Shown: positions 4,787 through 60,717 of the stretch, piece after piece
Layout of the letters: every line of letters starts with the position of its first letter
Numbering within the stretch: the first letter of the stretch is position 1
Assembly (NCBI GenBank): GCA_017521025.1
Contig: JAFXEB010000009.1
Location: 382-64,381, forward strand
DNA: 64,000 nt
Direction: 5' to 3'
Source of the DNA: Clostridia bacterium
Lineage (GTDB): Bacteria > Bacillota > Clostridia > Oscillospirales > CAG-382
Made by a program: the position numbers and the translations under genes
The notes under the pieces: generated by a model
Told to the model about the DNA's origin: nothing
The model's database searches: none
Seen by the model: the letters and a program-made list of their open reading frames with translations, nothing else

Positions 4787-5323
4787 CTATATTTTCCATT
4801 TTCCGAGAGAGCGCAGTATCTGCGGAAAGCTTCTCTTTACCGCATCGGGTGACATAGCCTCCACTTCCTCCATGGTAAGCTCACCCTCGCCCTCCTCGTT
4901 GTTTACGGGAGGCAGGGCAGCGCTCCCGTTCCTTTCGTTTACGCCGTTTGCGTAGGCGTTACCGTTGCCCTCGGTTACAAGATAAAGGGCGTAAGAGTAG
5001 GGTAGAGGAATGCCCTTTTGCATATCCTCCCAAACTGCGTCGGGGATGTCCTCGGCGCCTACCTCAGGGAAAAGGGCTCTGAAACGCTTTATCTCAGCGT
5101 TCAGCTTCTCCTTTTCCTCTGCGCCTCTTGCGTTTTCCCTGGCGGTGCGCCTGCTGTCGTGGGCAGACTTGATATAGCCTCTTGCCGTCTCGGGAATAGC
5201 CGAAATGCTCTTCTCAAAAAGGCTGTCGCTTTGCACCTGCAAAGCGGTAAGAAGCTCCTCTACCGTACTGCCTGAATCCTCTGCTATATCGCAGAGCGTG
5301 TTGTAAGCCTGTTCCTTTGTCAT
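4787..5323 (-). CDS. Capsid scaffolding protein (178 aa)
   Basis: An acidic, helical, Glu/Ala-rich protein between the portal and capsid genes. Its start overlaps the portal stop by 4 nt. Confidence 0.6.
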   Translation of the reverse strand: MTKEQAYNTLCDIAEDSGSTVEELLTALQVQSDSLFEKSISAIPETARGYIKSAHDSRRTARENARGAEEKEKLNAEIKRFRALFPEVGAEDIPDAVWEDMQKGIPLPYSYALYLVTEGNGNAYANGVNERNGSAALPPVNNEEGEGELTMEEVEAMSPDAVKRSFPQILRSLGKWKI

Positions 5324-6885
5324 ATTGCTCCTTCCTCCTTTACCTCTGCCTCTGCTTCTGCGCCCTGCACCTCGTTCATGAGCTCTGCCTTCATGGGTAT
5401 CAGCTTGTCGGGTATGCGCTCAAGGTACTGCTTCATTCCTATTTTGCCCGATTGTAAGAGAGCGTCCAGCGTATTAAGTGAAGCTATCTCGGACCAATAG
5501 CTTGCAGTGCCTGCCTCTACCTGACAGTCAAAGGCAAAACGCTTGTAGCGGCTAAGGGGCAGTGCCTCGTAGCCGTCCTCGCCCGTTTCGATAAGTCGCA
5601 TATCGTCATAGTATGCGAAAATGAAATCAAGCCATACAAGTCCTATCGCCTCGGCAAAGCCAAAGAGGTTGCGCTTGATGTTCTCCAGTGGCATCGCCGA
5701 TGCCTGCTGCAGTGCAATAATGGCAGAGGTGTTCTTGGGGTCCACGTCGCCCAGTGCGGTGTCGGTGGCACCCATAAACTCCTTGGTGTGACTTATTGCC
5801 ATGGACAGAAGCTCCAGCATACCGGATTGCATCTGTCCCGCCGGCAGGACCTTTGCAACGCTGTCTACGCTTCCGTTTACTGCGATGGCCTCGCCCACCT
5901 TGTTCGTCCAGTTGTCTATGATGGTCGAGTCATATACAACCTTTGAAAACGCAGTGTCCATCATGTGCTTCATAGCCATGGCAAAACCCTTGTTGATAAA
6001 AATCTGGTTTTCAATAAGTCCTGTGGCAACCGCTTGACCGTGCCACGAATTTTTGACGGCGGTCCAGTTCATAAAGCATACGGGATACATAGTGAGGGGT
6101 GTGACCGTTTCAGGACATATTACGGCGTTTTTAACTGACTTGCGGTAGCAGACCTTTCCGTTTTCGTCCTTCCACAGCTTGATCAGCGCCGTGCACTTGG
6201 TACCCTCCAGCTCCTTCGCTGCCATATCGCCGCTTTGGGTAGCTGTATCGTCGTCAGGGCGAATCTTGCTTATCTCCTTTTCAGACACCCCGTTTTCCTT
6301 TGCGGCTTTGATAAGCGACGGTAAGGTCTCACGGGAGGAGATAAGGATATAAGGCTGAGTCTGTACGTTCTTACTGTTGGGATTGCCAAAGAACACGTTT
6401 GTGTTGTCCACAAGCACTGTCCTGAAATCCCCCGTAAAGGGTTGACCTGTCTTCACGGACTTGTCCCAATATGTGTATGCAACAGCATCTCCGCTAAGGG
6501 CGGCATCCGTAAGGGCACCGTAAAGCAGGTCGTTAAGCTTCAGCTTATCAGCCTTGACTCCGATAATTTTATTGATAACCTCGGTAATGCCGTCAGCCTC
6601 CTCCTTGGAGACACCGCCTTTATTACCGAATGGCGAGGCATAGTTATAGCGTATAGCCGTGCGGCTCTGCATTATGTTTGATATGTAGTAGCCGATAATA
6701 CGCTTGAAAATATTGAACACGGGCTTAGGCAGTCCTCCTGCATCCACGCCCGTCCACTGGTCTCCTCTGTAAAACCTTTCGTTGCGGTTTACAGTGGAAT
6801 AGAGGTCGATGGAATAGTTGTATTCCTTGCCTTTTTCAAATAAAAGCCAGTCCTCTGTGCATTCATTCCTTTTGCTTTTGAACAT
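5320..6885 (-). CDS. Portal protein (521 aa)
   Basis: The size and the position directly after the large terminase and before the scaffold and capsid genes follow the canonical order. Confidence 0.75.
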   Translation of the reverse strand: MFKSKRNECTEDWLLFEKGKEYNYSIDLYSTVNRNERFYRGDQWTGVDAGGLPKPVFNIFKRIIGYYISNIMQSRTAIRYNYASPFGNKGGVSKEEADGITEVINKIIGVKADKLKLNDLLYGALTDAALSGDAVAYTYWDKSVKTGQPFTGDFRTVLVDNTNVFFGNPNSKNVQTQPYILISSRETLPSLIKAAKENGVSEKEISKIRPDDDTATQSGDMAAKELEGTKCTALIKLWKDENGKVCYRKSVKNAVICPETVTPLTMYPVCFMNWTAVKNSWHGQAVATGLIENQIFINKGFAMAMKHMMDTAFSKVVYDSTIIDNWTNKVGEAIAVNGSVDSVAKVLPAGQMQSGMLELLSMAISHTKEFMGATDTALGDVDPKNTSAIIALQQASAMPLENIKRNLFGFAEAIGLVWLDFIFAYYDDMRLIETGEDGYEALPLSRYKRFAFDCQVEAGTASYWSEIASLNTLDALLQSGKIGMKQYLERIPDKLIPMKAELMNEVQGAEAEAEVKEEGAI

Positions 6886-6901
6886 ATAAAGCTCCTTTCT
6901 G

Positions 6902-8257
6902 TCAATAATCTATAATGCTTCTGTAAGGCTCTCTTTCCGGTCTTCGTCCCTCGAAGCTCCTTGAATAGGGCAGAGGCTTTTCCTTTTTCCCCTCTGAGCG
7001 GGGCACCCTTGACATCAAGCCATAGCGCAGCGCCTCAGGTGCGTGGGTTATCTCGTGGGGCGTATCTGCCGCATCCTCACGCACGTTGCTGTCAAAGCGA
7101 AGCAAGGGCAGACAGCGTATAAGGTTGTCACAGCCTCTGAAAATGCAAAGCGCACTTTTGCCGTCCTCCCCGTCCTTCAGATATTCTCTTACGATGCGCC
7201 AGCCGTTTATGCGCTCATTTTGCGCCTTCTTAAGCCCCGTAAGCCCTGCCGCTGTCATTATCTCGGCTCCGCTTTTTCCGCTTTCCTGCCGCCTGTTCCA
7301 AAGGTCAGGTGACGCCACCGTATACCGTATGCTCTCCTGCCTCGGCGTGGCTGCCCTTATCTTGGCGGCAGCCTCCGACAACAGCAGTCCCGATTCATAT
7401 AGCTCTCTGTAAACGTAGACCCGCCCCTCCGGCGATATGGCAAACCATAGGCAGGCAGTCATATCAAGACCGTAGTCGAGAGCTCTGAATCTTTGCCAAT
7501 CGGGCGGTATCTCAAAGGGCACGCATACGTGCACTTCCTCGCAAAACTCAGGAAAGAAGGCACCTTCAAAGGAATTCCAATCCCCGTAAAGCATCGCCGC
7601 ACGCCGTTTTTCGGGCAATGCCATCAGCGTTTCTACGTATTCGGGATTGTTCTCCATGATATATGCGTTGTCAAAGACAAGCGAGCGTATAAAGGCGTAG
7701 TTTTCCGCCTTTTCGTTTCCACGGTACTGTCTGTCCACGAAAAGGCGCTTGAACCAATCGTGTCCCACACCGCCGGGGTTGGCTGTAAGGAACATACGGG
7801 GCGTAAATGGCTTTTTCATGCTCCCCGATGCTCTGTTGCACTCCGTAAGGCACTGAAACTGAAAATAGGTAAAGTGTGTAGCCTCCTCCATCCCTATGAC
7901 CTCGTAGGACTGTCCCTGATATTGCAAAACGTCACTTTCACCGTCGCAATAGCCAAGCTTTATGCGGCTTCCGTTGCCAAAGCGGAACTCCTTCTGACTC
8001 TCCCGATATTCGGCAATGCCCGTAAGCAGCTTTTGCAGGGGGAGTATGTGGTTCTCTCTCAGCTCGCCCAGCGTGCGCCTCAGCAAAAGAATGTTGATGC
8101 CCTCGTAATTCACTGCCAAAAGTACCATCTTCATACGCATTGCCCAGCTCTTTCCGCCGCCCCTTGCACCACCGTAAGCCGTATACCGTGCCGACGACTC
8201 AAAAAACAGCCTCTGTTTTTCGTTGGGACATATAAGTATCTCGCTCATTTCGCCCAA
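6902..8257 (-). CDS. terL: Terminase large subunit
   Basis: It has an N-terminal Walker A (YGGARGGGKSW), a later IGMEEATH (Walker B/coupling-like) motif and a C-terminal nuclease-type acidic region. It overlaps terS by 13 nt. Confidence 0.9.
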   Translation of the reverse strand: MGEMSEILICPNEKQRLFFESSARYTAYGGARGGGKSWAMRMKMVLLAVNYEGINILLLRRTLGELRENHILPLQKLLTGIAEYRESQKEFRFGNGSRIKLGYCDGESDVLQYQGQSYEVIGMEEATHFTYFQFQCLTECNRASGSMKKPFTPRMFLTANPGGVGHDWFKRLFVDRQYRGNEKAENYAFIRSLVFDNAYIMENNPEYVETLMALPEKRRAAMLYGDWNSFEGAFFPEFCEEVHVCVPFEIPPDWQRFRALDYGLDMTACLWFAISPEGRVYVYRELYESGLLLSEAAAKIRAATPRQESIRYTVASPDLWNRRQESGKSGAEIMTAAGLTGLKKAQNERINGWRIVREYLKDGEDGKSALCIFRGCDNLIRCLPLLRFDSNVREDAADTPHEITHAPEALRYGLMSRVPRSEGKKEKPLPYSRSFEGRRPEREPYRSIIDY

Positions 8258-12241: not shown

Positions 12242-13789
12242 ATGAAAAGAGTACTGTGCTTTCTCTTGCTTCTTTCGATGCTTGCGTTTGCCGCTTGCGG
12301 CGGCGAAAGTACAGCTGACAGCTCCACTGCTGACCGGTCTGAAACCCAGTCTGTGGCTGACAGCAGTGCGGCAGCTCCCGAAACTGCCATAGCTCCCGAT
12401 ATCAGCGGTATGACTGCTGAGCAGGCTGAGCAGGCTCTTAAGGATGCGGGCTTTGAGGTAAGGGTACGCAAAAAGAATTATGATGACGTGCCCGTGGGCG
12501 AGGTCGCAGGTATGGACCTTACCGCAGGTAAGGAATATGATTACGGCGATGTTTGCTATCTCTATATCTCCAGCGGTAAGACCCTCGGCGCACAGGCTCT
12601 TGAATATAAGCAGGGCGCCCTTGTTGCAAACCGTGAGGTGCTTGATGTGGGCGCAAACTCCGACTATACTCCTCTTAACTACGAGTATATGAAGGCGGCG
12701 TGGCTCTCTCAGTATGATATGAATGATGTTTATGTTGACGGCGCTTTCCAAAGGGCAGAGGACGACTTTACCCAGAGGATAGAGACACTCTTCGGCGGCT
12801 TGGCAGAGCTTGGTCTTAACACCTTGTTTGTACAGCTTCGTCCCAACGGCGACAGCATGTATCCCTCTGCTTACTATTGTCCTTCCTCCTATGCAGTAGG
12901 CTCCTACGGTGCCGACTTCACCTATGACCCTCTCAAGATAATGGTGGATGTGGCTCATAAGCATAACCTTTCCATCCATGGCTGGATAAATCCCCTGCGT
13001 TGTATGGACGTTAACGCTATTGACCTTATCAACATCAGCTACGGCCTCCGTGACTTTGAGCAGAATCATATGGATGATTATGTAGTAAAGTATGACGGTA
13101 AGTTCTATCTTAACCCCGGTAGGGAAGAGGTCAGACAGCTTATTATAAACGGCGCCGCAGAGATTGCCCGTTACTATGATATTGACGGTATACATATCGA
13201 CGACTATTTCTATCCCACTACCGAGTCAAGCTTTGATAAGGCATCCTTCCTTGACCAGACCGAGTACCTTTCTGTTGCAGACTTCCGCAAGGCAAGCCTC
13301 AACGCTTTGGTGGGCGGCATCTATTCTGCTGTAAAGGCTGAAAACCCCAAGCTTATCTTCGGCGTTTCTCCTGCGGGTCAGCCCGGCGCTGTCCGCAAAG
13401 CTTACGCAGATATCGATACTTGGCTTTCTACCGAGGGCTATCTCGATTATATTATGCCTCAGCTTTATTGGGGCTTTGAGCTTCGTGGCAGTGAGTTCGA
13501 CAAGCTTTACAGGAATTGGAACTCGCTTATCAAGATAGATATAAAGCTTATCCCGGGTCTCTCTCTTTCCAGAGCGGCTAGCGGCGAGACCAGCGAGTGG
13601 GTCAATAATAAGGACGTTCTTAAGCGTTGTGTAGAGTATGCTAACGGCTTTGGCGGCAAGGGCTTCTCCCTCTTTTCCAGTGACTCTATACTCAGCGCCT
13701 TTGACGGCTCCCGTGTTCCCAACACTTTGGAGGAGATGGATAACCTTCTCGACTATGTAAACCAGATAGAGGACACACCCATAGAGTAA
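12242..13789 (+). CDS. Lipoprotein with a PASTA domain fused to a glycosyl hydrolase-like 10 (GHL10/DUF187, YngK-like) domain
   Basis: I placed the start at MKRVLCFLLLLSMLAFAACGG (lipobox), 21 codons inside the track ORF. The PASTA-like segment is PDISGMTAEQAEQALKDAGFEV...VCYLYISSG. GHL10-like blocks are VQLRPNGDSMYPS, HGWINP, DGIHIDDYFYP and MPQLYW. Confidence 0.8.
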   Translation: MKRVLCFLLLLSMLAFAACGGESTADSSTADRSETQSVADSSAAAPETAIAPDISGMTAEQAEQALKDAGFEVRVRKKNYDDVPVGEVAGMDLTAGKEYDYGDVCYLYISSGKTLGAQALEYKQGALVANREVLDVGANSDYTPLNYEYMKAAWLSQYDMNDVYVDGAFQRAEDDFTQRIETLFGGLAELGLNTLFVQLRPNGDSMYPSAYYCPSSYAVGSYGADFTYDPLKIMVDVAHKHNLSIHGWINPLRCMDVNAIDLINISYGLRDFEQNHMDDYVVKYDGKFYLNPGREEVRQLIINGAAEIARYYDIDGIHIDDYFYPTTESSFDKASFLDQTEYLSVADFRKASLNALVGGIYSAVKAENPKLIFGVSPAGQPGAVRKAYADIDTWLSTEGYLDYIMPQLYWGFELRGSEFDKLYRNWNSLIKIDIKLIPGLSLSRAASGETSEWVNNKDVLKRCVEYANGFGGKGFSLFSSDSILSAFDGSRVPNTLEEMDNLLDYVNQIEDTPIE

Positions 13790-15591: not shown

Positions 15592-17895
15592 TTAACCGTT
15601 TGCCTTTTCCAGATCCTTCTTGCGGATCTCAACACGTCTGACCTTGCCGCTTATGGTCTTAGGCAGCTCATCTACAAACTCAACTATTCTGGGATACTTG
15701 TAGGGTGCGGTATGGGTCTTAACGTATTCCTGAATCTCCTTCTTCAAGGCATCGGTGCCCACCGTGTTCTTGGTAAGCACTATCGTAGCCTTTACTATCT
15801 GTCCTCTGACCTCATCGGGTACAGCGGTGATAGCACACTCAAGCACGTAAGGCAGCTCCATAATAACGCTCTCGATCTCAAAGGGCCCTATACGGTAGCC
15901 CGAGGACTTGATCACGTCGTCGATGCGTCCCACGTACCACAGATAGCCGTCCTCGTCCATGGTAGCCTGGTCGCCCGTGTGGTAAAATCCATCGTGCCAT
16001 ACATCTTTGGTCTTTTCGTCATCAAGGTAGTAGCCGATAAACAGACCGCAAGGTGCGCCATCCTTGGTGCGTATACAGATCTCACCCGTGTCGCCCGTCT
16101 TGCACTCCTTGCCGTCGGGGTCAAGCAACACCACGTCATACAGAGGGCTGGGTCTGCCCATAGAGCCGATCTTGGGAGTAGAACCAACGAAGTTTGCGAT
16201 AGAGAGGGTGGTCTCCGTCTGACCGAAGCCTTCCATTATCTTAAGTCCCGTAGCCTTGTAGAACTGATTGAACACCTCGGGGTTAAGCGCCTCGCCTGCC
16301 GTGGTGGCGTACTCGATAGAGGAAAGGTCGTACTTGGAAAGATCCTCCTTTATAAAGAAACGGTACATAGTGGGAGGTGCGCAGAAGGTGGTTATGTGAT
16401 ACTTCTTGAACAGAGGCAGAATGTCCTCAGAATGGAATCTGTCAAAGTCATAGGTAAATACGCCTGCCTCGCAAAGCCACTGACCGTAAAGCTTGCCCCA
16501 AAGCGCCTTGCCCCAGCCAGTGTCGGAAATGGTAAAGTGCAGACCGTCGGGGTTAACGTTGTGCCAGAACTTTGCGGTGGGGTAGTGTCCCAAAGCATAT
16601 TTGTATGAATGGGTAGCTATGCGGGGATATCCCGTAGTGCCTGACGTAAAGAGCATAAGCATGGGATCGTTGCCGCAGGGGGTGTTCTCGTTGCGGTAGA
16701 AATGGGTGCTGAAACGCTCCATCTCCACGTTAAAATCGTTCCAACCGTCCTTCTTGCCGCCCACAAGGATCTTCACCATATGGGGGAACTCAGCCGCAGC
16801 CTTCTCCGCCTCGTCGGAAACGCCGCCATCAGCGGTACAAACGATAGCCTTAACGCCGGCAGCCTTGTATCTGTATACAAAATCGTGCTCTACAAGCTGA
16901 TTCGTTGCAGGGATGGCGATAGCGCCGATCTTGTGGAGCGCAAGCATACAGAACCAGAACTGATAATGACGCTTGAGCACCAGCATAACGGTGTCACCCT
17001 TCTTTATGCCGAGGGACTCGAAATAGTTAGCCGTCTTGGCGGAATACTTCTTCATGTCGCTGAAGGTGAAGCGGCGGTCACTCTTATCATTTGCTACCCA
17101 CATCATAGCAAGCTTGTCAGGAGTCTTAGCAGCTATGGCATCAACGCAGTCAAAAGCAAAATTGAATTTGTCATCATTCTTAAAGGAAATGCCATTGAAA
17201 ACACCGTTTTCATCAAGAGTATAGTCGATAAAGTCATCGGCAACGGTTCTTACAGCCTTCTTCTCCACACCTGCGGTCTTAGCGGCAATAAAGGGTGCCT
17301 CGGGATACTCTTCGCTGAAATGACCGTCCTGCGGATTGAGCACCACTGCGTGGAACTCACAGCCGCCCTCGCTGACAGCGATCATGCCGTGGGGAATGAT
17401 GCTGTTGTAGAAGATAGAGTCGCCCTCATTCAGTATATCAATGTGATTACCTACCTGTACCTTGAGAGAACCCTTTACGATAACGTCAAACTCCTGACCG
17501 TTGTGGGAGTTAAGCTTGATGGGTGCGTTCTGCTCCTCCTCAACGTAGGGGAACTTAACAAGAAAAGGCTCGGCAAGCTTATCCTTAAACTTAGGCGCAA
17601 GGTTGTTATAAACGCCGCCGTGCTTTTTGCTGATCTTAAGACCCTCGCCCTTTCTGGTAATAGCGAAGGAGGAAAGAGTAGTGCTGGTACCCTCTATAAT
17701 ATCAACGACCTCTACGTTACAAGCCTTAGCGCACTTGTAAATGAAGGTAAAGCTAAAGTCCGTCTCTCCCTTTTCCAAAAGGAGATAGTCCTCGGTAGAC
17801 ACGCCTGTAAGCCGTGCCAGCTCCTCAGGCGTATAGCCTGTAGCCTCACGCAGGTCCTTGATTCTTCTCGCAACCTCTTTCAGATTGTACTCCAT
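15592..17895 (-). CDS. Fusion protein of an XRE-type HTH, a cupin domain and an AMP-forming acyl-CoA synthetase (medium/short-chain ACS-like)
   Basis: The N-terminal HTH_3-like segment is LKEVARRIKDLREATGYTPEELARLTGVS. The cupin segment is GQEFDVIVKGSLKVQVGN...GDSIFYNSIIPHGM. The AMP-binding core carries FTSGTTGYPR, GFGQTET, YHTGD and SGKVRR. Confidence 0.9.
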   Translation of the reverse strand: MEYNLKEVARRIKDLREATGYTPEELARLTGVSTEDYLLLEKGETDFSFTFIYKCAKACNVEVVDIIEGTSTTLSSFAITRKGEGLKISKKHGGVYNNLAPKFKDKLAEPFLVKFPYVEEEQNAPIKLNSHNGQEFDVIVKGSLKVQVGNHIDILNEGDSIFYNSIIPHGMIAVSEGGCEFHAVVLNPQDGHFSEEYPEAPFIAAKTAGVEKKAVRTVADDFIDYTLDENGVFNGISFKNDDKFNFAFDCVDAIAAKTPDKLAMMWVANDKSDRRFTFSDMKKYSAKTANYFESLGIKKGDTVMLVLKRHYQFWFCMLALHKIGAIAIPATNQLVEHDFVYRYKAAGVKAIVCTADGGVSDEAEKAAAEFPHMVKILVGGKKDGWNDFNVEMERFSTHFYRNENTPCGNDPMLMLFTSGTTGYPRIATHSYKYALGHYPTAKFWHNVNPDGLHFTISDTGWGKALWGKLYGQWLCEAGVFTYDFDRFHSEDILPLFKKYHITTFCAPPTMYRFFIKEDLSKYDLSSIEYATTAGEALNPEVFNQFYKATGLKIMEGFGQTETTLSIANFVGSTPKIGSMGRPSPLYDVVLLDPDGKECKTGDTGEICIRTKDGAPCGLFIGYYLDDEKTKDVWHDGFYHTGDQATMDEDGYLWYVGRIDDVIKSSGYRIGPFEIESVIMELPYVLECAITAVPDEVRGQIVKATIVLTKNTVGTDALKKEIQEYVKTHTAPYKYPRIVEFVDELPKTISGKVRRVEIRKKDLEKANG

Positions 17896-17957
17896 AATAG
17901 TTTGCCCCTTTCATTTCCGTATGCTTTTATAAAAAAGCAGATATTTCGGATTTGAAT

Positions 17958-18221
17958 AAAACAAAAGACTCGTCTCAAAAGCTTTGAGACGAGTCATTCA
18001 ACTCGCGGTACCACTCAAATTGCGGAGACGAACTCCGCCACCTTACAGGCTCAAACAAGCCCTTGCTTTAACGCAGCATTACGGAAGGAGCCTACTTGCG
18101 CACAAAAACACTTTCGGTCCTCCAACTCGGAAGTGATGGGTCATTGGAAAGCTCTGACATTGGCTCGCAGCAACCGCCAACTCTCTGTAGACTCGGCAAT
18201 CCGACCGTCTTCGTCATAGTT
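17958..18221 (-). promoter_or_regulatory. T-box riboswitch leader (specifier read as AUC, Ile) with a terminator/antiterminator switch
   Basis: Read on the minus strand:
- Stem I base with a K-turn-like AUGACGAAG...CUUCCGAG.
- AG bulge CAGAGAG.
- Distal loop GGUUGCUGCGAG.
- F-box-like GCGUUAAAG.
- Stem III GCGGAGuucguCUCCGC.
- T-box sequence AAUUUGAGUGGUACCGCGAG (18020-18001).
- The antiterminator pairs UUUGAG with CUCAAA, has the 7-nt bulge UGGUACC, and pairs GCGAG with CUCGU.
- It competes with the terminator GACUCGUCUCaaagcuuuuGAGACGAGUC plus UUUUGUUUU (17995-17958). Confidence 0.85.
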
Positions 18222-18250
18222 GTTTGTGATATTCAATTTCCTTGTCTCGC

Positions 18251-18279
18251 ATTATACTCGTGAGAAAAGCGTTTGTCAA
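18251..18279 (-). promoter_or_regulatory. Consensus sigma-A promoter driving the T-box leader
   Basis: On the minus strand: TTGACA (18279-18274), a 17-nt spacer, then TATAAT (18256-18251). Confidence 0.8.
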
Positions 18280-18323: not shown

Positions 18324-21300
18324 CTATTCACTCCAAAGGGGGACTGTAAGCTCATGCTCGCCCTCCTCAAGCATCAACGGAAAGCTCACAGCTCTGCCGT
18401 CATAGCTGAGCCTGCCGCCCCGCACTGCCCTGATGCGCAGTGTCCCCTTAAAGCTCAGGGTCATCTCGTATTCCATAAGGGGTCTCACTGTCAGAGCAGA
18501 GAAGCCGTCTCTCAGCTCTATCCCCATAAATACCTCAAGCACCGTCTTGCAAAACCATCCCGATGCCCCCGTGTAATGAGTCCAGCCGCCACGCCCCTTT
18601 TGCCCCTTCGCCATATAGATGTCCGCCGCAAGGCAGTAGGGCTCTACCTTGTATCCGGCAAACAACTCGCTGTTTTCGCCTCTAACCAAGGGATTAAGAG
18701 CAAATATCAGCTCCGATGCCTCCTTGTTTAAGCCGCACATAGCAAGAGCGGCACAAAACCACAGGGCGGCGTGAGTGTACTGACCGCCGTTTTCCCTTAC
18801 CCCCTTGGCGTAGGCGTTGATATAGCCTGCATATTCGGTGTCCTTCCCAAAGGGCGGCGAAAACAGCCTCAGCACCCTGTGACTGCTGTCATACAGCCTT
18901 TCATAGGCAGTTCTCAGGGCAATTCTGCACTTCTCTCTGTTCGCACCCGCAAACACCGCAAAGGCTTGAGACAGTATATCTATCTCGCAAGCCCCTCTGC
19001 CGTCCACACCAAGCGGAGTGCCCGTACCGATGTAGGCTCTGACAAATCGGTCGCCCACGAAGGCTTTTTCGGCTCTGTCTAAAAGCTCAGCCGCCTCTTT
19101 TCCGTATTCCTCCTCGCCGCTAAGTGCCGCAAAGCAACGAAGAGCGATAACCCTCAGAAAAGCGCAGAAAACGCTCTCAGCCTCCTCGGGCAGGGCAGAA
19201 AAAGCGTCATTCCAATCACAGCTACCCATAAGGGGCAGACCGTGCACCCCGTAGTGCCTTCCGTAGTCTATAGCCCGTCTGCAATGCTCCAAAAGGCTCT
19301 CCTTTTTCGCTGTTACCTCAGCCGCCTCGTATCTTTCACGCTCGTCCCCCAAGGGTGCAGAGTGCAGATAAGGTAGCTCTACCTCAAGCACAGAGCGGTC
19401 ACCCGTCTTTTCCACGTAATCCCATACCGCAATAGGCAGCCACAAAAAATCGTCACTGCATCGACTGCGTATCCCGTATATCCGCCCCTCACGCTTGCAG
19501 GGGTGCCACCAGTGCTGAACACAGCCTTCGGTATACTGCCTCGCCGCCGCCCTTAGCAAATGACAGCGCACGGTTTTCGGCATAGCGTAAACCAGATACA
19601 TACAGTCCTGAAGCTGGTCTCTGAAGCCATAAGCACCGCCGCTTTGATAAAAGGCGGCTCTGGCAAAGAAACGGCAAGCGGCTGTATCGTAGGGCGCAAA
19701 GGTGCAAAGCATAGCATCAAGGGCAGGGAAGGTGCGGGTAATTAAGGGAGGGAGCATGCTTTTAGCAAAGCCTACAGCGCTCGCCTTCTCCTTTTCGGTG
19801 CCTCTGCGTGCAAACAGCGCCGCTACGTTTTCACAGCCCTTTTTGCCCTGCGCTGCACCGATAAGGAACACAACAGTGCTCCCTCTCATCTTCACTGCAG
19901 CCACGTCCTCAGCGTCAGAGACAGCTCCAAGCAGCTCGCTTTCCGAGCTGTAAAGCTCCCCCTTGCCCAGGCACGCCACAAAGGCGTATTTCCCCTCAAA
20001 AAACGAGCTTGCGGGATTTGTAAAGCACTTACCCACTCCTCCGCAAAAGTCCATACGCTCCATTTTTACGCTCTTGCAGGGAAATACGCCCGATCCCATA
20101 AGCGGTGCCACCGAAAGGGCAACCTCTCCTTCCTTGCCGTCCTCAAAGCGTATCTCCACTGACTTTACGGGTAACTTGTGGCACACGAAAACAGTGACGG
20201 TGTACGCCCTGCCGCCTGCCTCACCTCTGTAGGTGGCAACTCCGTTTTCGTACCTCGCTGTGGAAGCGCAGGCTACCGCATCATATACCCTGCCGCCCTC
20301 CATAAGATACAGCACCTCGCCTCTGTCTGTGCCTCCGTAGGGGTCACAGCACGATGCAGATATGCGTCCAAGGGCGGCGTTCCCGTAAAAGCTGTAACCA
20401 AGGGTCGACTGAGTCACCACACTGCCAAAGCCTCTGCCTGCCAGCACGTAGGAAAAGGGCAATGCAAGTTCCTCGTCCTTGTCTGCCGTAAAGCTGTCCA
20501 CCTCGTAAACGCCGCCGCCTACTGCTCTGCCGCTAAGTCCCGGGGAGGGCGAATGTCTGCGGATAACAGGGGGCAGAGGCACAACGTGACATGCACTGTC
20601 TCCTTCTCCAAAGGGCGTGTCATAGCTTTCCGTAAAGCAAACGGCGGCATCCATAAAGAGCTTTACCGTTTTCACGTCTCTTCCATCGGCAAACATAATG
20701 CCGCCACGCTTGCCGATAAAGCCTTCGCACTTCATATCTGCCGCAATACGTGTTATAGAGCTTCTTATGTCGGATCTGTAGCTGTCCTCCTCACATACAA
20801 GAAAAACAAGCTCCATTCTTGTGCCAAGTGTCGCAATCCGTTTGAAAAAACCGATAAAAAACCTTGCGTCCTTCTCAAAAAACTCCCGTACAAGCACGGC
20901 TATTATGGGGTAATCGCCTGATACGCCGTGTGCCCATAAAGCTCCTTCTTTTGCGTATTCCGTTTCTGCAAAGCTCCGTCTGCCAAGGAGTATCCCCTCA
21001 AGCAATCGGTTCTCTCTGCCGCCGCAAATAGCGGTGCCGACCCCCTTGCCGCTTATCCTGCGGGACAGCACAAGTCTTTCCGCACATTCCTTCCTCGTGT
21101 GCCCCAAAGCAAGTATCAGTCTGCATTCTCCCCCCGCCAAGGGGGCGGTTTTTATCTGGCAAAAGGGAGTAACGCATACTCCCGTGCTCCCGCTGTGGCA
21201 GTCCTTCAGAAGCTCTCTTGCCGAGTATTGTGAGAAGGCGCCGTAGCTTTCCTTGCGGGTCTCAAAGCCAAATCCCACCTTGTCATCTGCCAGACCTACC

Positions 21301-24300
21301 GCCAAAAACAGCGAGCTTCGTCCGTCACGGCTGTTCTTGGTGTAGATCAAAGCGTTGAGGCTTTTGTCATACTCTGCGCTGATAAATAGGCGGTTAAAGG
21401 CGGGGTGGGCATAAAACTCTCTGTCCTCGCAAAGCTGTACATCAAAGCTGAAGCACATAGAATAGCTTTTTCTTCCGTCGCTTTTGCTTTCCACTACAAA
21501 ACAGCCGGCGCCGTCGGTAAAATACTTGACTCTGCCCGAAAACTCTGTGGTAGAGCAGATATGGGCGGCATATCCGTCTGCTCCCTCGAAGCTGTAGCCC
21601 TCGCCTCCACGCTCAGGCGTGGCGTAGTAAGCATCCTTCCCGTTGATAAAGGCAACGGAAAAACTGCGTGCAGTGCTGTGCCTGTCAAAATGGGTCTCGT
21701 TTACCGTAATATTTCCGTAAGAGAAACGTATGTGTCCAAGGCTGTCTGCACTGATAGACGCAGGCGGCTTGCCGCCTATATAGAATACCGTCTCGCCCGA
21801 GCTTAACACCGTGCTTTTTCCTCCGCTTGGAATACGCAAAGGCTCTCTTTTCTTCTCAGGTGCGCTCTTTTTCGTGGCGTGGATGGGTGCCCCCACGGGT
21901 ATCTTTTCCTGCAACAGCTCGTAAAAGGCGCCCGTAGCAGGGTGGTTCATAAACCGCTTGACAAAAACTCCGTCAAAGCAGGCGTTGGCAAGGGCAATAA
22001 GGCTCATACCCATATGATGTGCCATATAGCTCTGAATAACAGCGCCGCCCTTTTCCTTAACAGTAAAGTCGATAGCCTCATACAGTCCGTATCTTCCTGC
22101 CATTCCTGCCTCCTCGTAAGCGCCGAGTGCTGCAATAGCCGCTTTGGGCGCAAGGCAAAGGCTAAGATAAACAGAGTAGGGTGACAGTATATTTTCCCTG
22201 CTCTTGTATCTGCACAGCGCAAGGCTTTGCACTCCGTGGGCCTTATATTGATAATTCATCTCGCTGTCAAAGCAGTAATAGGCGCTCTCCGAACAGCCCC
22301 ATAGCCTGCCTGACGAATGGCGCATCTGCTGTGATAAAGCAAATACAAGGCTTTCGTAAATAAAGCTGTTCTTATACAGGGGCAGAAACAACTGGGGCAT
22401 CAAAAATTCAAAGGCGGTGCCTGACCAGCTTGCCATGCCGATATGCCTTGCATTTCCTATCAGAGGTCTGCCAAGGGTCCTCCAATGCTTTAGGGGGACC
22501 TGCCCCGTTGCCACCGCAAAATAAGAGGTGCTCCTCGCCTCGCTCATAAAAAGGTCATAGCAAATATCAGAAAGCGCCCCCGTTTTTCCGTCTGCCCCCA
22601 GAGCAAACAGATTCCTCTCCCCATTGTACAAGGCACTGAAGTCTGCGCCTCTGTAAAGCCGCTCCACCCTTTCGCCTAAGGCAGCCCTGCCACTGCTGTA
22701 CAAAAATCTTGACAAAGCAAGCAGGCATACGCAAAAGTTGCCGCTATCTACGGTAGATACGTAGCCGCCGCCTATGGGTGCGGTAGGGGAGAGGGAATAC
22801 CAGTTGTAAAGGTGCCCCTTCCACTTCTCCAGCCTTTCTATAGAGCCGACAGCGTTCTCAAGTCGCTTTTCAGTCTCATCGCCGGTTATTAAGCCAAAAT
22901 CCTCTGCCGCCACTACAGACAGCAGATAAAGCCCTATATTAGTAGGGGATGTGCGCATAGCAACAGCCTCCACAGGTGAGAGCTGAATGTTATCCGGCGG
23001 TAGCCAATCCGTAGCTGCCCCCACGTTTTCCTCGAAAAATTTCCATATAGGCAAAGCCCTTTTGAAAAGCAGCCGTCTCTCCCTCTGGGATATATACGCC
23101 TTTTCCTTTCTCCTTACAGAAATAGCAAAGGCATATAGTGGTGCCATAAACCATATAAGCCCCAACAGCCTTGTTACCCAAAGAGAAGAAAGGAAAAAGC
23201 AAACAGTACCCACAAGAGCAGAGGGCAAAAACCTCAGTATATAGCCTCCAAGCTCCGACGCCTCCTTTTTTTCTGTCTGCGCCGCAGTGACCCAGCTCAA
23301 CAGCCTCTTTCGCCTGATAAGTCTGTACACTGCCTTAGTGAAAGCGTCAATCGTCAAAAGTCCCTTGTAGCACAGGGTGCTAAACTCAAAAAACACTGTA
23401 CGCAGGCTTTGCACCGCCCCATCCTCCACCGAGGAGAAAAAACGCCTCGCACGGAACTTCAGCGCCGCAGGTCTGCTTATAAAGGTGTAAAGTAAAGGCG
23501 ACAGCATATTAATAAGGGCAAAAAAGCACGCCCATAGTCCTTTTCCGCCGTGGACAAAAAAGCCTGCAAAAACAAGTGTCAACAACGAAAACACAGGGCA
23601 AAGATGGCGTAGCACGTTCATAACGATACGCCCACCGCCACGAAAACCCTGCCCGTAGCCGAAAATCAGCGACAGGTTCTGCACGTCACCTCTTATCCAA
23701 CGGTGCAGTCTTGAAAAATAGCCTGCCACCCCCGTAGGCACGCTGTCCGTAAAGCAAAGGTCTGCAACATACCTTGTGCGCAGGATGTTTCCCTCGGGCA
23801 TATCGTGGCTCAATACACGCTCTGCGGGCAAAGCGCCATCGAGAAGCGCTGAATACAAGGCTATGTCGATAATACCCTTGCCGCAAAATATCCCCTCGCC
23901 AAAAACGCTCTGATGTCGGTCAAAGGCGGCGCTTTCGTATACCTCAATACCGCCTGCGCCTGTCAACAGCTCGGAAAAACGGCTCTTTTTCTCGGTGCTG
24001 AGGCAAGGCTTTACAGCAGGCTGAATAATGCCGTAGCCTGAGCATACCCTGCCTCCCCTGAGCTTTGGACGGTTAAGGGGGTGTAGCATCATCCCGGTCA
24101 GTACCGCCGCCCCCTCAGGCGGCAGTCGGGTGTCGCCGTCCAGCGTCAGCAGATATTTAACGCCCCTGCAGTCCGCCCCCAAGGCTAAGGCAAAGGGAGA
24201 CCTTGCGCCCCTGAGATGCCGTACGAGGTCCTCTATCGCACCTCTTTTCCTCTCTCTGCCGCTGAAGGTGCCGTCTCTGTTTTCTACCCTCGGTCTGATA

Positions 24301-25412
24301 AACAGGCAAAAACGGTCGCCAAAACGCCCTTTCAGACTCTCAAGCCGCCCCACGGCGCCTTTTATAAGGCTCTCGTCATCCTCGCTCTTTTCCGTTTTGC
24401 AAGGGGGCAGGTCAGCAAGCACGCCAAAATAAAAGCCATCGTTCTTATTAGTGTGATAAAGTCCCTCAAGCTGTTCAAAAACCTTGTCATCATCACCAAG
24501 CAGTGTTGTTATCACCGTCAGCGTAAGGTCGCCCCTCGGTAGCTTCCTCGGGTCAATGGCGGGGCAGGGCTCAGCTCTGCCGAAAAACGAGAACAAAAAA
24601 TCCCCAAGCCCCAAGGCGAATGCCCCCAAGGGCAGTATAAGCAAAAGCGTCAGCCAACCTCCGCAAAGCCGCCACGCTACCCCTGCGGACAGCGCAAATA
24701 CAAGCCCCACCGTAAGCAGGTAGAAAAGGGAAGACATCCGCCTTTCCACCCCTAAAACTGTGCCTATACAGCAGCCACGCCTTGCCGCCTCCTTCTCTGC
24801 CGCAAGCACCGCATCCGTCTCTGCAAGCCTCTGCCTGTGGCTGTATCGCCTCAGCGCCCTTCTGTAAAGCGCCCTCGTGGCATCGGTCATGGCGCTGTAG
24901 CCGTCTTCTCTTTCCTCAAGCAGCCTTTCTGCAACAGAAAGTCTGCTGTGCAAGGAGCTGAAATCCGTTATCTCCGCCTTCTTCAGCATCAAAAACGCTC
25001 CACGCAGCCTCCCTATACCAAGACTTTTGTCCTTTATAGCCGCCTCGCATACAAGTCCCGTTTCAAGTATTGCGGCTGCGCATATCAGGCTTTTCAGCAT
25101 ATCTGTTTCCGCCGTACTGCAATCGTACCCGTCGAGAGCACGGCTTATGTCCTCCTTTGTACATACAAAGCCGTTCTTTTTAAAGTGCTCCCATAACGCA
25201 CTGAACGCTTGTGGCACCCCGTTCCTCGATGGTAGCCTATTAAGTCTTCCGTAGTCTTTCTCGGCTTCTGCTATTTTCCGCCTGTAGTAATAGGCGTTAT
25301 CGGCTACAAAGCCAGGCACCCCGCCCAAAGGCTCCTGCCTGCCAAGCCTTTCCGCCTTAAGTATGTGCACTGCCGCCCTTTTAAGCTCTTTAATAAAACG
25401 CTTTGCCTGCAT
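18324..25412 (-). CDS. Cyclic beta-1,2-glucan synthase-like giant membrane protein (2362 aa) with a glycosyltransferase region, a central (alpha/alpha)6-type domain and a GH94 phosphorylase-like C-terminus
   Basis: The architecture resembles Cgs/NdvB/ChvB:
- A cytoplasmic N-terminal region.
- Transmembrane helices.
- A GT region with LTLDGDTRLPPEG and a later RWIRGD.
- Several more transmembrane helices.
- A segment WLPPDNIQLSP...RTSPTNIGLYLLS.
- A C-terminal GH94-like region (GGAYGFRDQLQD, VQHWWHP, GSCDWNDA, GGQYTHAA). Confidence 0.8.
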   Translation of the reverse strand: MQAKRFIKELKRAAVHILKAERLGRQEPLGGVPGFVADNAYYYRRKIAEAEKDYGRLNRLPSRNGVPQAFSALWEHFKKNGFVCTKEDISRALDGYDCSTAETDMLKSLICAAAILETGLVCEAAIKDKSLGIGRLRGAFLMLKKAEITDFSSLHSRLSVAERLLEEREDGYSAMTDATRALYRRALRRYSHRQRLAETDAVLAAEKEAARRGCCIGTVLGVERRMSSLFYLLTVGLVFALSAGVAWRLCGGWLTLLLILPLGAFALGLGDFLFSFFGRAEPCPAIDPRKLPRGDLTLTVITTLLGDDDKVFEQLEGLYHTNKNDGFYFGVLADLPPCKTEKSEDDESLIKGAVGRLESLKGRFGDRFCLFIRPRVENRDGTFSGRERKRGAIEDLVRHLRGARSPFALALGADCRGVKYLLTLDGDTRLPPEGAAVLTGMMLHPLNRPKLRGGRVCSGYGIIQPAVKPCLSTEKKSRFSELLTGAGGIEVYESAAFDRHQSVFGEGIFCGKGIIDIALYSALLDGALPAERVLSHDMPEGNILRTRYVADLCFTDSVPTGVAGYFSRLHRWIRGDVQNLSLIFGYGQGFRGGGRIVMNVLRHLCPVFSLLTLVFAGFFVHGGKGLWACFFALINMLSPLLYTFISRPAALKFRARRFFSSVEDGAVQSLRTVFFEFSTLCYKGLLTIDAFTKAVYRLIRRKRLLSWVTAAQTEKKEASELGGYILRFLPSALVGTVCFFLSSLWVTRLLGLIWFMAPLYAFAISVRRKEKAYISQRERRLLFKRALPIWKFFEENVGAATDWLPPDNIQLSPVEAVAMRTSPTNIGLYLLSVVAAEDFGLITGDETEKRLENAVGSIERLEKWKGHLYNWYSLSPTAPIGGGYVSTVDSGNFCVCLLALSRFLYSSGRAALGERVERLYRGADFSALYNGERNLFALGADGKTGALSDICYDLFMSEARSTSYFAVATGQVPLKHWRTLGRPLIGNARHIGMASWSGTAFEFLMPQLFLPLYKNSFIYESLVFALSQQMRHSSGRLWGCSESAYYCFDSEMNYQYKAHGVQSLALCRYKSRENILSPYSVYLSLCLAPKAAIAALGAYEEAGMAGRYGLYEAIDFTVKEKGGAVIQSYMAHHMGMSLIALANACFDGVFVKRFMNHPATGAFYELLQEKIPVGAPIHATKKSAPEKKREPLRIPSGGKSTVLSSGETVFYIGGKPPASISADSLGHIRFSYGNITVNETHFDRHSTARSFSVAFINGKDAYYATPERGGEGYSFEGADGYAAHICSTTEFSGRVKYFTDGAGCFVVESKSDGRKSYSMCFSFDVQLCEDREFYAHPAFNRLFISAEYDKSLNALIYTKNSRDGRSSLFLAVGLADDKVGFGFETRKESYGAFSQYSARELLKDCHSGSTGVCVTPFCQIKTAPLAGGECRLILALGHTRKECAERLVLSRRISGKGVGTAICGGRENRLLEGILLGRRSFAETEYAKEGALWAHGVSGDYPIIAVLVREFFEKDARFFIGFFKRIATLGTRMELVFLVCEEDSYRSDIRSSITRIAADMKCEGFIGKRGGIMFADGRDVKTVKLFMDAAVCFTESYDTPFGEGDSACHVVPLPPVIRRHSPSPGLSGRAVGGGVYEVDSFTADKDEELALPFSYVLAGRGFGSVVTQSTLGYSFYGNAALGRISASCCDPYGGTDRGEVLYLMEGGRVYDAVACASTARYENGVATYRGEAGGRAYTVTVFVCHKLPVKSVEIRFEDGKEGEVALSVAPLMGSGVFPCKSVKMERMDFCGGVGKCFTNPASSFFEGKYAFVACLGKGELYSSESELLGAVSDAEDVAAVKMRGSTVVFLIGAAQGKKGCENVAALFARRGTEKEKASAVGFAKSMLPPLITRTFPALDAMLCTFAPYDTAACRFFARAAFYQSGGAYGFRDQLQDCMYLVYAMPKTVRCHLLRAAARQYTEGCVQHWWHPCKREGRIYGIRSRCSDDFLWLPIAVWDYVEKTGDRSVLEVELPYLHSAPLGDERERYEAAEVTAKKESLLEHCRRAIDYGRHYGVHGLPLMGSCDWNDAFSALPEEAESVFCAFLRVIALRCFAALSGEEEYGKEAAELLDRAEKAFVGDRFVRAYIGTGTPLGVDGRGACEIDILSQAFAVFAGANREKCRIALRTAYERLYDSSHRVLRLFSPPFGKDTEYAGYINAYAKGVRENGGQYTHAALWFCAALAMCGLNKEASELIFALNPLVRGENSELFAGYKVEPYCLAADIYMAKGQKGRGGWTHYTGASGWFCKTVLEVFMGIELRDGFSALTVRPLMEYEMTLSFKGTLRIRAVRGGRLSYDGRAVSFPLMLEEGEHELTVPLWSE

Positions 25413-33276: not shown

Positions 33277-33399
33277 ATATAACACCCAACCTTACCCATT
33301 ATAATCTTTTATACTACATAATATATCACAGCTTTCCCACATTTGCAACACCAAAACCTGCGGCAAACAGCAAAATTTAATCAAAACTCGTAAAAAGCC

Positions 33400-33476: not shown

Positions 33477-33551
33477 GCCTCCTTAGTTAAATGGATATAA
33501 CAAGCCCCTCCTAAGGGCTAGTTGTGGGTTCGATTCCCGCAGGGGGTGCCA
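33477..33551 (+). tRNA. tRNA-Arg (anticodon CCU), with encoded CCA end
   Basis: A hand-folded cloverleaf gives:
- Acceptor stem GCCTCCT/AGGGGGT (with two G-U pairs).
- D stem GTTA/TAAC.
- Anticodon stem AGCCC/GGGCT with loop CTCCTAA.
- T arm GTGGG-TTCGATT-CCCGC.
- Discriminator G followed by CCA. Confidence 0.9.
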
Positions 33552-60513: not shown

Positions 60514-60717
60514 ATCAGCAGCTTTGCGTTTTATTATGCAAAACGCAAACTCCTCCAAATAATCATCATATTAATAATATCACGAAAATGTAAATATGTC
60601 AATAAAAGTAGATTAAAGCTGTAAAATGTAATATAAGGTAATATTGAGTTAATAATGTGTTAACAAAAATGTGTTAATATGGCAAACTGAAGAATTTGTG
60701 TATCCAAGGAGCATATT

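Follow-up and report, generated by a model that had tools for sequence, protein, structure and literature searches.

The locus

The stretch of DNA analysed here, called the window below, comprises 64,000 nucleotides (64 kb) of the Clostridia bacterium assembly GCA_017521025.1 (contig JAFXEB010000009.1, positions 382 to 64,381). Its minus strand carries a transcription unit consisting of a promoter, a T-box leader, and one gene, which encodes a fusion of a helix-turn-helix (HTH) domain, a cupin domain, and an AMP-forming acyl-coenzyme A (CoA) synthetase (Table 1). The promoter agrees with the sigma-70 consensus at 12 of 12 positions. The leader matched the Rfam T-box model RF00230 with 99.7 bits (gathering score 93; E = 8.9e-21) from end to end (model positions 1–219), and the Rfam scan identified no other T-box in the window. 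The K-turn, an AGAGA bulge, the distal loop, stem II, the F-box, and stem III were all matched in the model alignment, the sole departure being a 4-nt deletion that removes AGUA from the 5′ side of the specifier loop. The terminator hairpin has a predicted free energy of −19.8 kcal/mol (z −6.06) and is followed by TTTTGTTTT / UUUUGUUUU, and the antiterminator (−11.2 kcal/mol) exposes UGGUACC as a 7-nt bulge. Because the 3′ strand of the antiterminator is also part of the terminator, the two structures are mutually exclusive. When stem I was folded alone, its minimum-free-energy structure differed from the canonical one (z −0.95), so we relied on the covariance model for this stem.

Judged from its sequence, the leader is a transcription-attenuating T-box with every element of its class. 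The initial annotation of this DNA had placed a complete T-box between a consensus promoter and the fusion gene, and this arrangement was recovered on the minus strand at the same coordinates; the full-length covariance match above the gathering score supports its completeness, with the AGUA deletion as the one deviation. The UGGUACC bulge with a competing terminator, also proposed there, was reproduced by folding and by the terminator scan, and UGGU does suit a tRNA with discriminator A. The predicted architecture of the protein held as well, since the HTH, cupin, and synthetase domains all scored above their Pfam cutoffs.

Table 1. Features of the transcription unit, in window coordinates
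Feature	Position	Strand	Details	Basis
Transcription unit	15592–18279	−	promoter, T-box leader, gene	
Sigma-70-type promoter	18251–18279	−	TTGACA 18279–18274, spacer 17 nt, TATAAT 18256–18251	read from sequence
13-mer, 5′ arm of long-range inverted repeat	18226–18238	−	AATTGAATATCAC (clade consensus ATTTGAATATCAC); 5′ end of transcript, 5′ of stem I	
T-box leader, full length	17982–18226	−	RF00230	covariance model
Stem I	18125–18220	−	K-turn, specifier loop, AG bulge, distal loop	covariance-model alignment
Specifier	18134–18137	−	AUC 18137–18135 + purine A 18134 (isoleucine)	model alignment
Stem II to F-box	18069–18122	−	stem II (GAAA/AGUA), stem IIA/B region, F-box CGUUA (18073–18069)	covariance-model alignment
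Stem III	18022–18039	−		covariance-model alignment
Antiterminator with T-box sequence	17982–18020	−	UGGU, pairing with tRNA 3′ end, at 18013–18010	fold
Intrinsic terminator	17958–17995	−	13-bp hairpin 17995–17967, U-run 17966–17958	fold, terminator scan
3′ arm of inverted repeat	17950–17962	+	RNA strand GUUUUAUUCAAAU; overlaps end of U-run	
Ribosome-binding site	17905–17910	−	AAGGGG, 9 nt 5′ of ATG	read from sequence
Coding sequence	15592–17895	−	767 amino acids (aa), HTH–cupin–acyl-CoA synthetase fusion	open reading frame list, translation, Pfam
XRE-type HTH domain	17704–17862	−	residues 12–64	HTH_3, 31.4 bits (cutoff 23)
Cupin domain	17344–17520	−	residues 126–184, triad His131/Glu135/His169	Cupin_2, 32.6 bits (cutoff 27.2)
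AMP-forming acyl-CoA synthetase	15643–17139	−	AMP-binding 253–623, AMP-binding_C 673–751; key residues Trp444, Gly462, Gly558, Lys751	Pfam, motifs

Specificity of the T-box

The model aligns GACCC-AUC-A to the 3′ side of the specifier loop, with the closing stem CUUC coming next, and thereby puts AUC in the codon slot and the usual purine directly after it. The covariance model agrees here with the isoleucine specifier that the initial annotation had derived from its own fold of stem I. For comparison, we collected 80 orthologous loci (L001–L080) from different species-level genomes, whose proteins are 87–91% identical to the window protein; these are nearly all metagenome-assembled genomes (MAGs) from ruminant and other herbivore guts and are labelled Clostridia, Acutalibacteraceae, or Oscillospiraceae. 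Close relatives of the protein occur in at least 581 species-level genomes. In the 75 loci with enough upstream DNA for the leaders to be compared, ATC was retained without exception, as was the TGGT bulge. The two bases 5′ of ATC varied (CC, TT, or CT), and the base 3′ of it was A in most leaders and C or G in a few, so that the conservation of the codon among relatives, raised as a question at the outset, is accompanied by variable flanking loop bases. A +1 frame (UCN, serine) was rejected on the basis of the model register and of the Val-type leaders described below, in which that frame gives the stops UAA or UAG. The T-box is thus predicted to be specific for tRNA-Ile.

The synthetase domain

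The two synthetase domains scored 196.5 bits (AMP-binding) and 78.8 bits (AMP-binding_C) in Pfam, and the core motifs TSGTTGYPR, GFGQTET, YHTGD, and SGK751, which includes the motif A10 lysine, are intact. The top match among solved structures was PDB 3ETC, the MacsMa enzyme of Methanosarcina acetivorans (689 bits over residues 241–762; 56% identity in the synthetase domain), whereas acetyl-CoA synthetase structures reached at most 254 bits. Among the NCBIfam models, MbcS (NF047394) ranked first with 445.5 bits over residues 256–765, compared with 256 for AcsA and 192 for PrpE. MacsMa prefers 2-methylbutyrate, which was the sole tested substrate taken through thioester formation, and its acyl pocket is characterized by Trp259 and by a glycine that replaces Trp416 of acetyl-CoA synthetase (PMC10455477; PMC3438747). 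MbcS selectively activates 2-methylbutyrate and isobutyrate (PMC10026030). In the alignment, both MacsMa pocket residues are kept in the window protein, as Trp444 and Gly558, respectively. The window enzyme is most likely a short branched-chain acyl-CoA synthetase of the MacsMa/MbcS type, with 2-methylbutyrate as its predicted substrate.

Isoleucine- and valine-type fusions in other lineages

Further clades with the same architecture, annotated as Acutalibacteraceae, Ruminococcaceae, Lachnospiraceae, and Solobacterium, were found with profile and single-sequence searches, and the DNA of eleven family loci (L083 and L085–L094) was scanned with Rfam. A T-box preceded 15 of the 18 sampled fusion genes outside the window clade; seven of these T-boxes had an Ile specifier (AUC) and the other eight a Val specifier (GUA or GUC), these being the only two amino acids represented. 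At four loci (L085, L087, L088, and L089), two fusion genes stand in tandem, the first behind an AUC leader and the second behind a GUA leader, and the Val-type gene is followed by genes for a 220–225-aa protein, a ferredoxin, three oxidoreductase subunits, and a class-IV aminotransferase. The order AUC, then GUC, was found for the tandem fusions of L083, near a LeuA-like gene and a TIM-barrel–AMP-binding gene, and for the two fusions of L094 (Ruminococcaceae), whose neighbours encode a ferredoxin and Vor-like subunits, a PFOR, a class-IV aminotransferase, a TIM-barrel–AMP-binding protein, and a LeuA-like protein. L090 carries two fusions in one operon, with an AUC T-box approximately 430 nt upstream and a class I/II aminotransferase gene after the fusions, and single Val-type fusions occur among unrelated neighbours in L086 (GUA) and L092 (GUC). 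No T-box was found in L091 (Lachnospiraceae), where two tandem fusions accompany a divergent ferredoxin, oxidoreductase subunits, and a LeuA-like gene, or in L093, where one fusion has unrelated neighbours. In L085, the alpha-like oxidoreductase subunit matched the VorB model with 535 bits (cutoff 399), and the aminotransferase matched the branched-chain aminotransferase model with 482 bits (cutoff 307) and ilvE_II with 400 bits (cutoff 250).

A neighbour-joining tree with MacsMa as the root united the Val-type proteins in one clade, around which the Ile-type proteins, including the window clade, branched. Five positions, located in motifs of the acyl pocket, distinguish the two types. Residue 462 is Gly in the Ile type and in MacsMa (DTGWGK) and Ala in the Val type (DTGWAK). 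Residue 438 is Tyr in the Ile type, Phe in the Val type, and Ile in MacsMa, and residue 562, within GFGQTET, is Thr in the Ile type (Leu in one protein) and in MacsMa, and Ser in the Val type. Residue 565 is Ser, Thr, or Val in the Ile type, Ile or Met in the Val type, and Thr in MacsMa, and residue 567 is Ala in the Ile type and MacsMa and Gly in the Val type. The Ile-type enzymes therefore mostly agree with MacsMa at positions 462, 562, 565, and 567. Residue 462 presumably corresponds to Val386 of Salmonella acetyl-CoA synthetase (DVGWVTG), which we take to be one of four residues of the acetate pocket, and a Gly-to-Ala change at this position would fill the space of roughly one methyl group, the amount by which 2-methylbutyrate exceeds isobutyrate.

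The same comparisons bear on a different route to isoleucine, in which the enzyme would activate propionate, and propionyl-CoA would be reductively carboxylated to 2-oxobutyrate and enter the ilv pathway. Monticello et al. are said to have described a route from propionate to isoleucine in Clostridium sporogenes in 1984, and such a route also exists in methanogens. Some family members adjoin LeuA-like or citramalate-synthase-like genes, whose products make 2-oxobutyrate precursors, which hints at an emphasis on this metabolic node. MacsMa adenylates propionate (PMC10455477) but leaves the CoA step incomplete with it (PMC10455477; PMC3438747). The PrpE model scored far below MbcS (192 versus 445 bits), and at position 462 the Ile type retains the glycine of MacsMa, which is expected to give a roomier acyl pocket. 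The Val-type paralogue would moreover have no straight-chain equivalent, so a symmetric assignment of isobutyrate to valine and 2-methylbutyrate to isoleucine is simpler, and we consider the propionate route very unlikely.

Several other genes recur at these loci. A conserved protein of 220–237 aa is always encoded 5′ of the ferredoxin and Vor genes (L085, 8292–8954; L091, 3667–4371; L094, 3176–3889; and L087, L088, and L089); its only family match was a weak CbiA/ParA-like one in Pfam, with none in NCBIfam, and it may help in the maturation of the oxidoreductase or act as its accessory factor. A gene of approximately 825 aa, in which AP_endonuc_2 (a xylose-isomerase-like TIM barrel) is fused to an AMP-binding fatty-acid CoA ligase, was present in L012 (153–2627) and about 17 other window-clade loci, as well as in L083 (1–2685) and L094 (15154–18280). 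Its neighbour is a LeuA-like or citramalate-synthase-like gene, and three separate lineages have this pair beside their HTH–cupin–synthetase genes; in L094, the class-IV aminotransferase and PFOR genes come after it. The ~825-aa gene may belong to a further module connected with branched-chain amino acids.

The second fusion of the L090 operon (P0162; 4493–6769) has LQSYSYGMAK as its P-loop, FHTGT in place of YHTGD, and no motif A10 lysine, but retains the cupin, and is probably a catalytically dead paralogue, as judged from these motifs. Being the most divergent fusion, it was considered as a possible third, Leu-type clade; this was rejected, given its degenerate motifs and its position as the second gene of an Ile-T-box operon, and no Leu specifier preceded any fusion gene. 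In L087, a Leu T-box (CUC-G, 108.5 bits; 12697–12937) precedes a LeuA-like gene directly 3′ of the Val-type operon of synthetase, Vor, and IlvE genes, suggesting that leucine may be made de novo from salvaged 2-oxoisovalerate. L089 also contains an ordinary thiamine pyrophosphate (TPP) riboswitch (61.7 bits; 1708–1827) before a Thia_YuaJ thiamine transporter gene.

Proposed salvage of 2-methylbutyrate into isoleucine

Fibre-degrading Firmicutes of the rumen and hindgut have been known since the 1950s–60s to need or profit from branched-chain volatile fatty acids, and these "isoacids" are still used as livestock feed. The habitat of the window-clade relatives, which are Clostridia of the ruminant rumen and hindgut, agrees with this classical physiology. 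In rumen anaerobes, branched-chain acids are reductively carboxylated to amino acids, according to PMC10701908, which cites Allison & Bryant (1963) and Allison et al. (1966), and methanogens reductively carboxylate branched acyl-CoA and transaminate the product (PMC10658910).

We propose that the window locus controls the first step of such a route. When isoleucine is plentiful, charged tRNA-Ile would be unable to stabilize the antiterminator, and transcription would end at the terminator hairpin. When isoleucine is scarce, the GAU anticodon of uncharged tRNA-Ile would pair with the AUC specifier and its free NCCA end with UGGU, so that the antiterminator would form and the single downstream gene would be transcribed. 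The enzyme, by homology, would convert 2-methylbutyrate, ATP, and CoA to 2-methylbutyryl-CoA. As the neighbourhoods of the relatives suggest, a VorB-type 2-oxoacid:ferredoxin oxidoreductase would then carboxylate 2-methylbutyryl-CoA reductively to 3-methyl-2-oxopentanoate, and IlvE would transaminate this to isoleucine. Through the switch, a fermentation acid that is plentiful in the gut would be salvaged to make the amino acid in short supply, and in the sister clade isobutyrate would be converted to valine in the same way under a Val T-box. We assign a probability of roughly 0.65 to this reading, in which isoleucine starvation induces, through the T-box, the salvage of 2-methylbutyrate via the CoA ligase, Vor, and IlvE. 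The opposite, catabolic direction, from amino acid to acid, was rejected, as AMP-forming ligases operate in the direction of the thioester and uncharged tRNA, the inducer here, is a sign of starvation.

The idea that a branched acid is salvaged into isoleucine had already been put forward in the initial annotation, together with the suggestion that a 2-oxoacid:ferredoxin oxidoreductase be sought in the genome. The first part is strengthened by the kinship with MacsMa and MbcS and by the Val-type paralogues that share operons with a VorB-type oxidoreductase and IlvE. As for the second, the CoA ligase, the oxidoreductase, and the aminotransferase are encoded together in L085, L087, L088, L089, and L094, and in part in L091, but no oxidoreductase gene is present in the window.

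Several observations weigh against the proposal. With the L085 proteins as queries, tblastn found no homologue of VorB, the Vor beta and gamma subunits, ferredoxin, IlvE, or the 220-aa protein, either in the window or in the 3-kb flanks of L001–L080; Pfam searches of 20 further open reading frames of the window likewise detected no branched-chain amino acid genes. As the window holds neither the oxidoreductase nor the aminotransferase, the full pathway is only putative for its source genome. The Ile-type (62%) and Val-type (61%) paralogues of L085 are nearly equidistant from the window protein, so the window gene is tied to their operons by family and not by orthology. In the tandem loci, moreover, the Vor and IlvE genes stand behind the Val T-box and not the Ile T-box, so an Ile-specific induction of the whole route is not evident. 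Three sampled family genes (two in L091 and one in L093) had no T-box in the Rfam scan. At the level of the leader, the UCN codon of the +1 frame is likewise conserved among the Ile-type leaders, and only the model register and the Val-type leaders speak against it. At the level of the enzyme, the MbcS score lies below the equivalog cutoff of 850 bits, so the window protein is no MbcS orthologue, and its substrate preference is deduced solely from the 56% identity to MacsMa and the pocket residues.

The window gene is also monocistronic and has unrelated neighbours, with no oxidoreductase or IlvE gene nearby, which would suit an enzyme whose product serves mainly as a FabH primer for anteiso fatty acids. 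The scavenged acid would then replace the primer derived from isoleucine, and isoleucine would be spared for protein. Rumen cocci put branched acids into lipids as well as into amino acids. MbcS, the best NCBIfam match, has precisely this role in Staphylococcus aureus (PMC10026030). However, a sensor of tRNA charging would be odd for a membrane-lipid function, the specifiers divide cleanly into Ile and Val, one-to-one with amino acids, and the family is repeatedly co-operonic with a VorB-type oxidoreductase and IlvE, which are needless for fatty-acid priming. We regard the supply of lipid primers as the main role as unlikely, and it is compatible with salvage into isoleucine because the first step is identical.

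The HTH–cupin module

In the AlphaFold model of residues 1–235 (mean predicted local distance difference test [pLDDT] score 78.7, with both domains above 85), a five-helix HTH (residues 11–60, pLDDT ~86–96) is followed by a cupin barrel and a disordered linker (residues 188–213). Foldseek placed 1Y9Q, an HTH_3 "transcriptional regulator" with a cupin, at the top, and HppE, HEPD, and MPnS were about equal to it (E 4e-14 to 1e-9), so that the module is as similar to HppE-type metalloenzymes as to a transcription regulator. The structures of these enzymes were crystallized with Fe(II), Co(II), or Mn2+. The cupin triad His131/Glu135/His169 was invariant in 36 diverse fusions and aligned with the H, E, and H of HppE, which we take to be its metal triad (H138/E142/H180), indicating that the module is probably metal-binding. 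Searches with the N-terminal module as the query returned a few 50%-identity clusters of fusions and stand-alone HTH–cupin proteins; the latter are approximately 185 aa long and 33–39% identical to the module, which here is fused to a synthetase of approximately 530 aa. DNA binding by the module is possible and is not implied by the fold alone. The guess that we favour is a sensor of a ligand or metal that acts on either the enzyme or DNA binding; a second layer of regulation, which had been anticipated from the domain composition, is at present hypothetical.

A 13-mer (consensus ATTTGAATATCAC) at the 5′ end of the transcript is nearly invariant among the 75 leaders, and an inverted copy, GTTTTATTCAAAT, lies directly past the terminator, approximately 275 nt away. 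In the read-through RNA, as many as 11 of the 13 positions of the two arms could form pairs. Internal changes in the 3′ copy are mostly A-to-G substitutions opposite U, which are compatible with G·U pairing (19 of 75 leaders), one lineage shows a compensatory U-to-A with A-to-U change, and both arms are missing from the four leaders whose 5′ ends are divergent. The two copies could form a long-range RNA helix that encloses the complete T-box, or could serve as a pair of operator sites for the fused HTH, and the variation pattern of the 3′ copy fits an RNA helix. A wider role of the 13-mer as a DNA operator was rejected: it has only two sites in the window, is at chance level when two mismatches are allowed, and is absent from the leaders of other clades. 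The fusion genes of L091 and L093 have plain promoters and short leaders, and inverted repeats were spotted by eye around both promoters (ACTGTAAAT ... ATTTACAGT in L091, 4371–4689; TGAATAAT ... ATTATTTCA in L093, 6711–7001); these are candidate operators for the fused HTH.

Such features raise the question of whether the protein is a regulator first, that is, a BirA-like "trigger enzyme" transcription factor whose synthetase domain senses the acid or CoA status and whose level is set by the T-box in isoleucine starvation. The HTH_3 and Cupin_2 scores, the stand-alone HTH–cupin relatives, the 1Y9Q match, the 13-mer at the transcription start with its inverted copy, and the promoter repeats of the members lacking a T-box would all accord with this. 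Nevertheless, the catalytic motifs are all intact, and within the clade the enzyme domain is better conserved than the N-terminus (92–94% versus 79–82%). The two-domain fold is shared with HppE, HEPD, and MPnS, and we know of no DNA binding by the helical domain of these enzymes. The 13-mer, for its part, occurs nowhere else in the window or in the leaders of other clades, and the variants of its 3′ copy appear to be constrained at the RNA level. We regard a primarily regulatory function as highly improbable.

A broader, doubtful proposal builds on salvage by the enzyme: the HTH–cupin–synthetase family may be an unrecognized class of dual-input salvage enzymes, in which a T-box that reads the charging of tRNA-Ile or tRNA-Val is combined with a metal-binding cupin/HTH module as the second input (a BirA-like enzyme-repressor, or a sensor of end product or substrate that acts on the enzyme), and in which the specifier and residue 462 together form a substrate code (Gly for Ile and 2-methylbutyrate, Ala for Val and isobutyrate).

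Other features of the window

The 5′ neighbour of the fusion gene encodes a 2362-aa GH94/glycoamylase-type protein (18324–25412, minus strand), and its 3′ neighbours are convergent GHL10/PASTA genes. A single protein with cohesin, dockerin, and Listeria-Bacteroides repeat domains is encoded at 42916–44472 (plus strand). Together, the cohesin/dockerin protein and the GH94-type protein point to a fibre-degrading, cellulosome-bearing organism of the Clostridium class; dependence on branched-chain acids is classical for such organisms. Genes for a phage terminase (Terminase_6N/Terminase_3) and a P22-type portal at 5320–8257 (minus strand), approximately 7 kb downstream of the fusion locus, suggest a prophage or phage remnant. 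An Arg tRNA with a CCU anticodon (33477–33548, plus strand), an aspartokinase with ACT domains (31951–33285, minus strand), and a BcrAD/BadFG-type pair of CoA-enzyme activases (56315–60558, minus strand) have no evident tie to the fusion gene.

Comparison with known systems

The T-box mechanism and the enzyme superfamily are already known; as far as we found, there is no precedent for this class of target, for the system of Ile- and Val-type paralogues with Vor and IlvE, or for the fusion architecture. The full-text literature searched contained no report of a T-box-controlled acyl-CoA synthetase or Vor gene, or of an HTH–cupin–synthetase fusion, although an earlier mention in Vitreschak 2008 or Gutierrez-Preciado 2009 is possible. 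No such target gene is mentioned in the T-box regulon surveys and supplements searched or in the TBDB paper, which accords with the initial annotation, whose author was aware of no established place for this gene family in the T-box regulon. Nor did we find a paper that assigns the genes for isoacid activation or their regulation.

The window leader shares stem I, stem II, the F-box, stem III, the switch, the AUC specifier with its purine, and UGGU for discriminator A with the T-boxes of ileS and the ilv-leu genes. Its target, unlike theirs, is neither an aminoacyl-tRNA synthetase nor a gene for de novo biosynthesis or transport; the leader also lacks the AGUA S-turn element on the 5′ side of the specifier loop, and the window clade adds a 5′ element and an inverted copy past the terminator. 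The T-box regulon would thereby be extended from amino acid synthesis, charging, and uptake to salvage from fermentation acids, in a family that is very widespread (the window-clade relatives plus clades in Lachnospiraceae, Ruminococcaceae, and Solobacterium MAGs). With 1Y9Q-type regulators and HppE-type Fe(II) enzymes, the N-terminal module shares the two-domain fold (Foldseek E 4e-14 to 1e-13) and, in HppE, the aligned His/Glu/His triad, at 22–23% identity; it differs from both in its fusion, via a disordered linker of approximately 25 residues, to an adenylate-forming enzyme.

Compared with the classical, physiological work on reductive carboxylation in the rumen, the window holds only the first enzyme, whereas the gene sets of its relatives (CoA ligase, VorB-type oxidoreductase with ferredoxin, and IlvE) correspond to the requirements of the pathway. 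The combination of a T-box with a MacsMa-like ligase, with Vor and IlvE adjacent in relatives, provides concrete, testable candidate genes for the conversion of isoacids to amino acids in gut anaerobes. If the dual-input proposal is true, then together with the neighbouring Vor and IlvE genes it would be the first gene-level definition of the classical "isoacid" requirement of the rumen.

As far as we found, the MacsMa papers assign no physiological role to that enzyme (PMC10455477; PMC3438747), and the present family suggests one for the MacsMa/MbcS type. The window domain keeps the alternate pocket Trp and the Gly in place of Trp416, and the Ile type is identical to MacsMa at Gly462, Ala567, and, with one exception, Thr562, whereas MacsMa is archaeal and has neither an HTH–cupin extension nor a T-box. 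The Ile- and Val-type enzymes constitute a natural paralogue pair for dissecting short-chain acyl specificity. MbcS, in contrast to the window protein, is a stand-alone enzyme that feeds fatty-acid priming and has no reported T-box control, but its two acids, 2-methylbutyrate and isobutyrate, are those implied by the Ile and Val T-boxes of the family.

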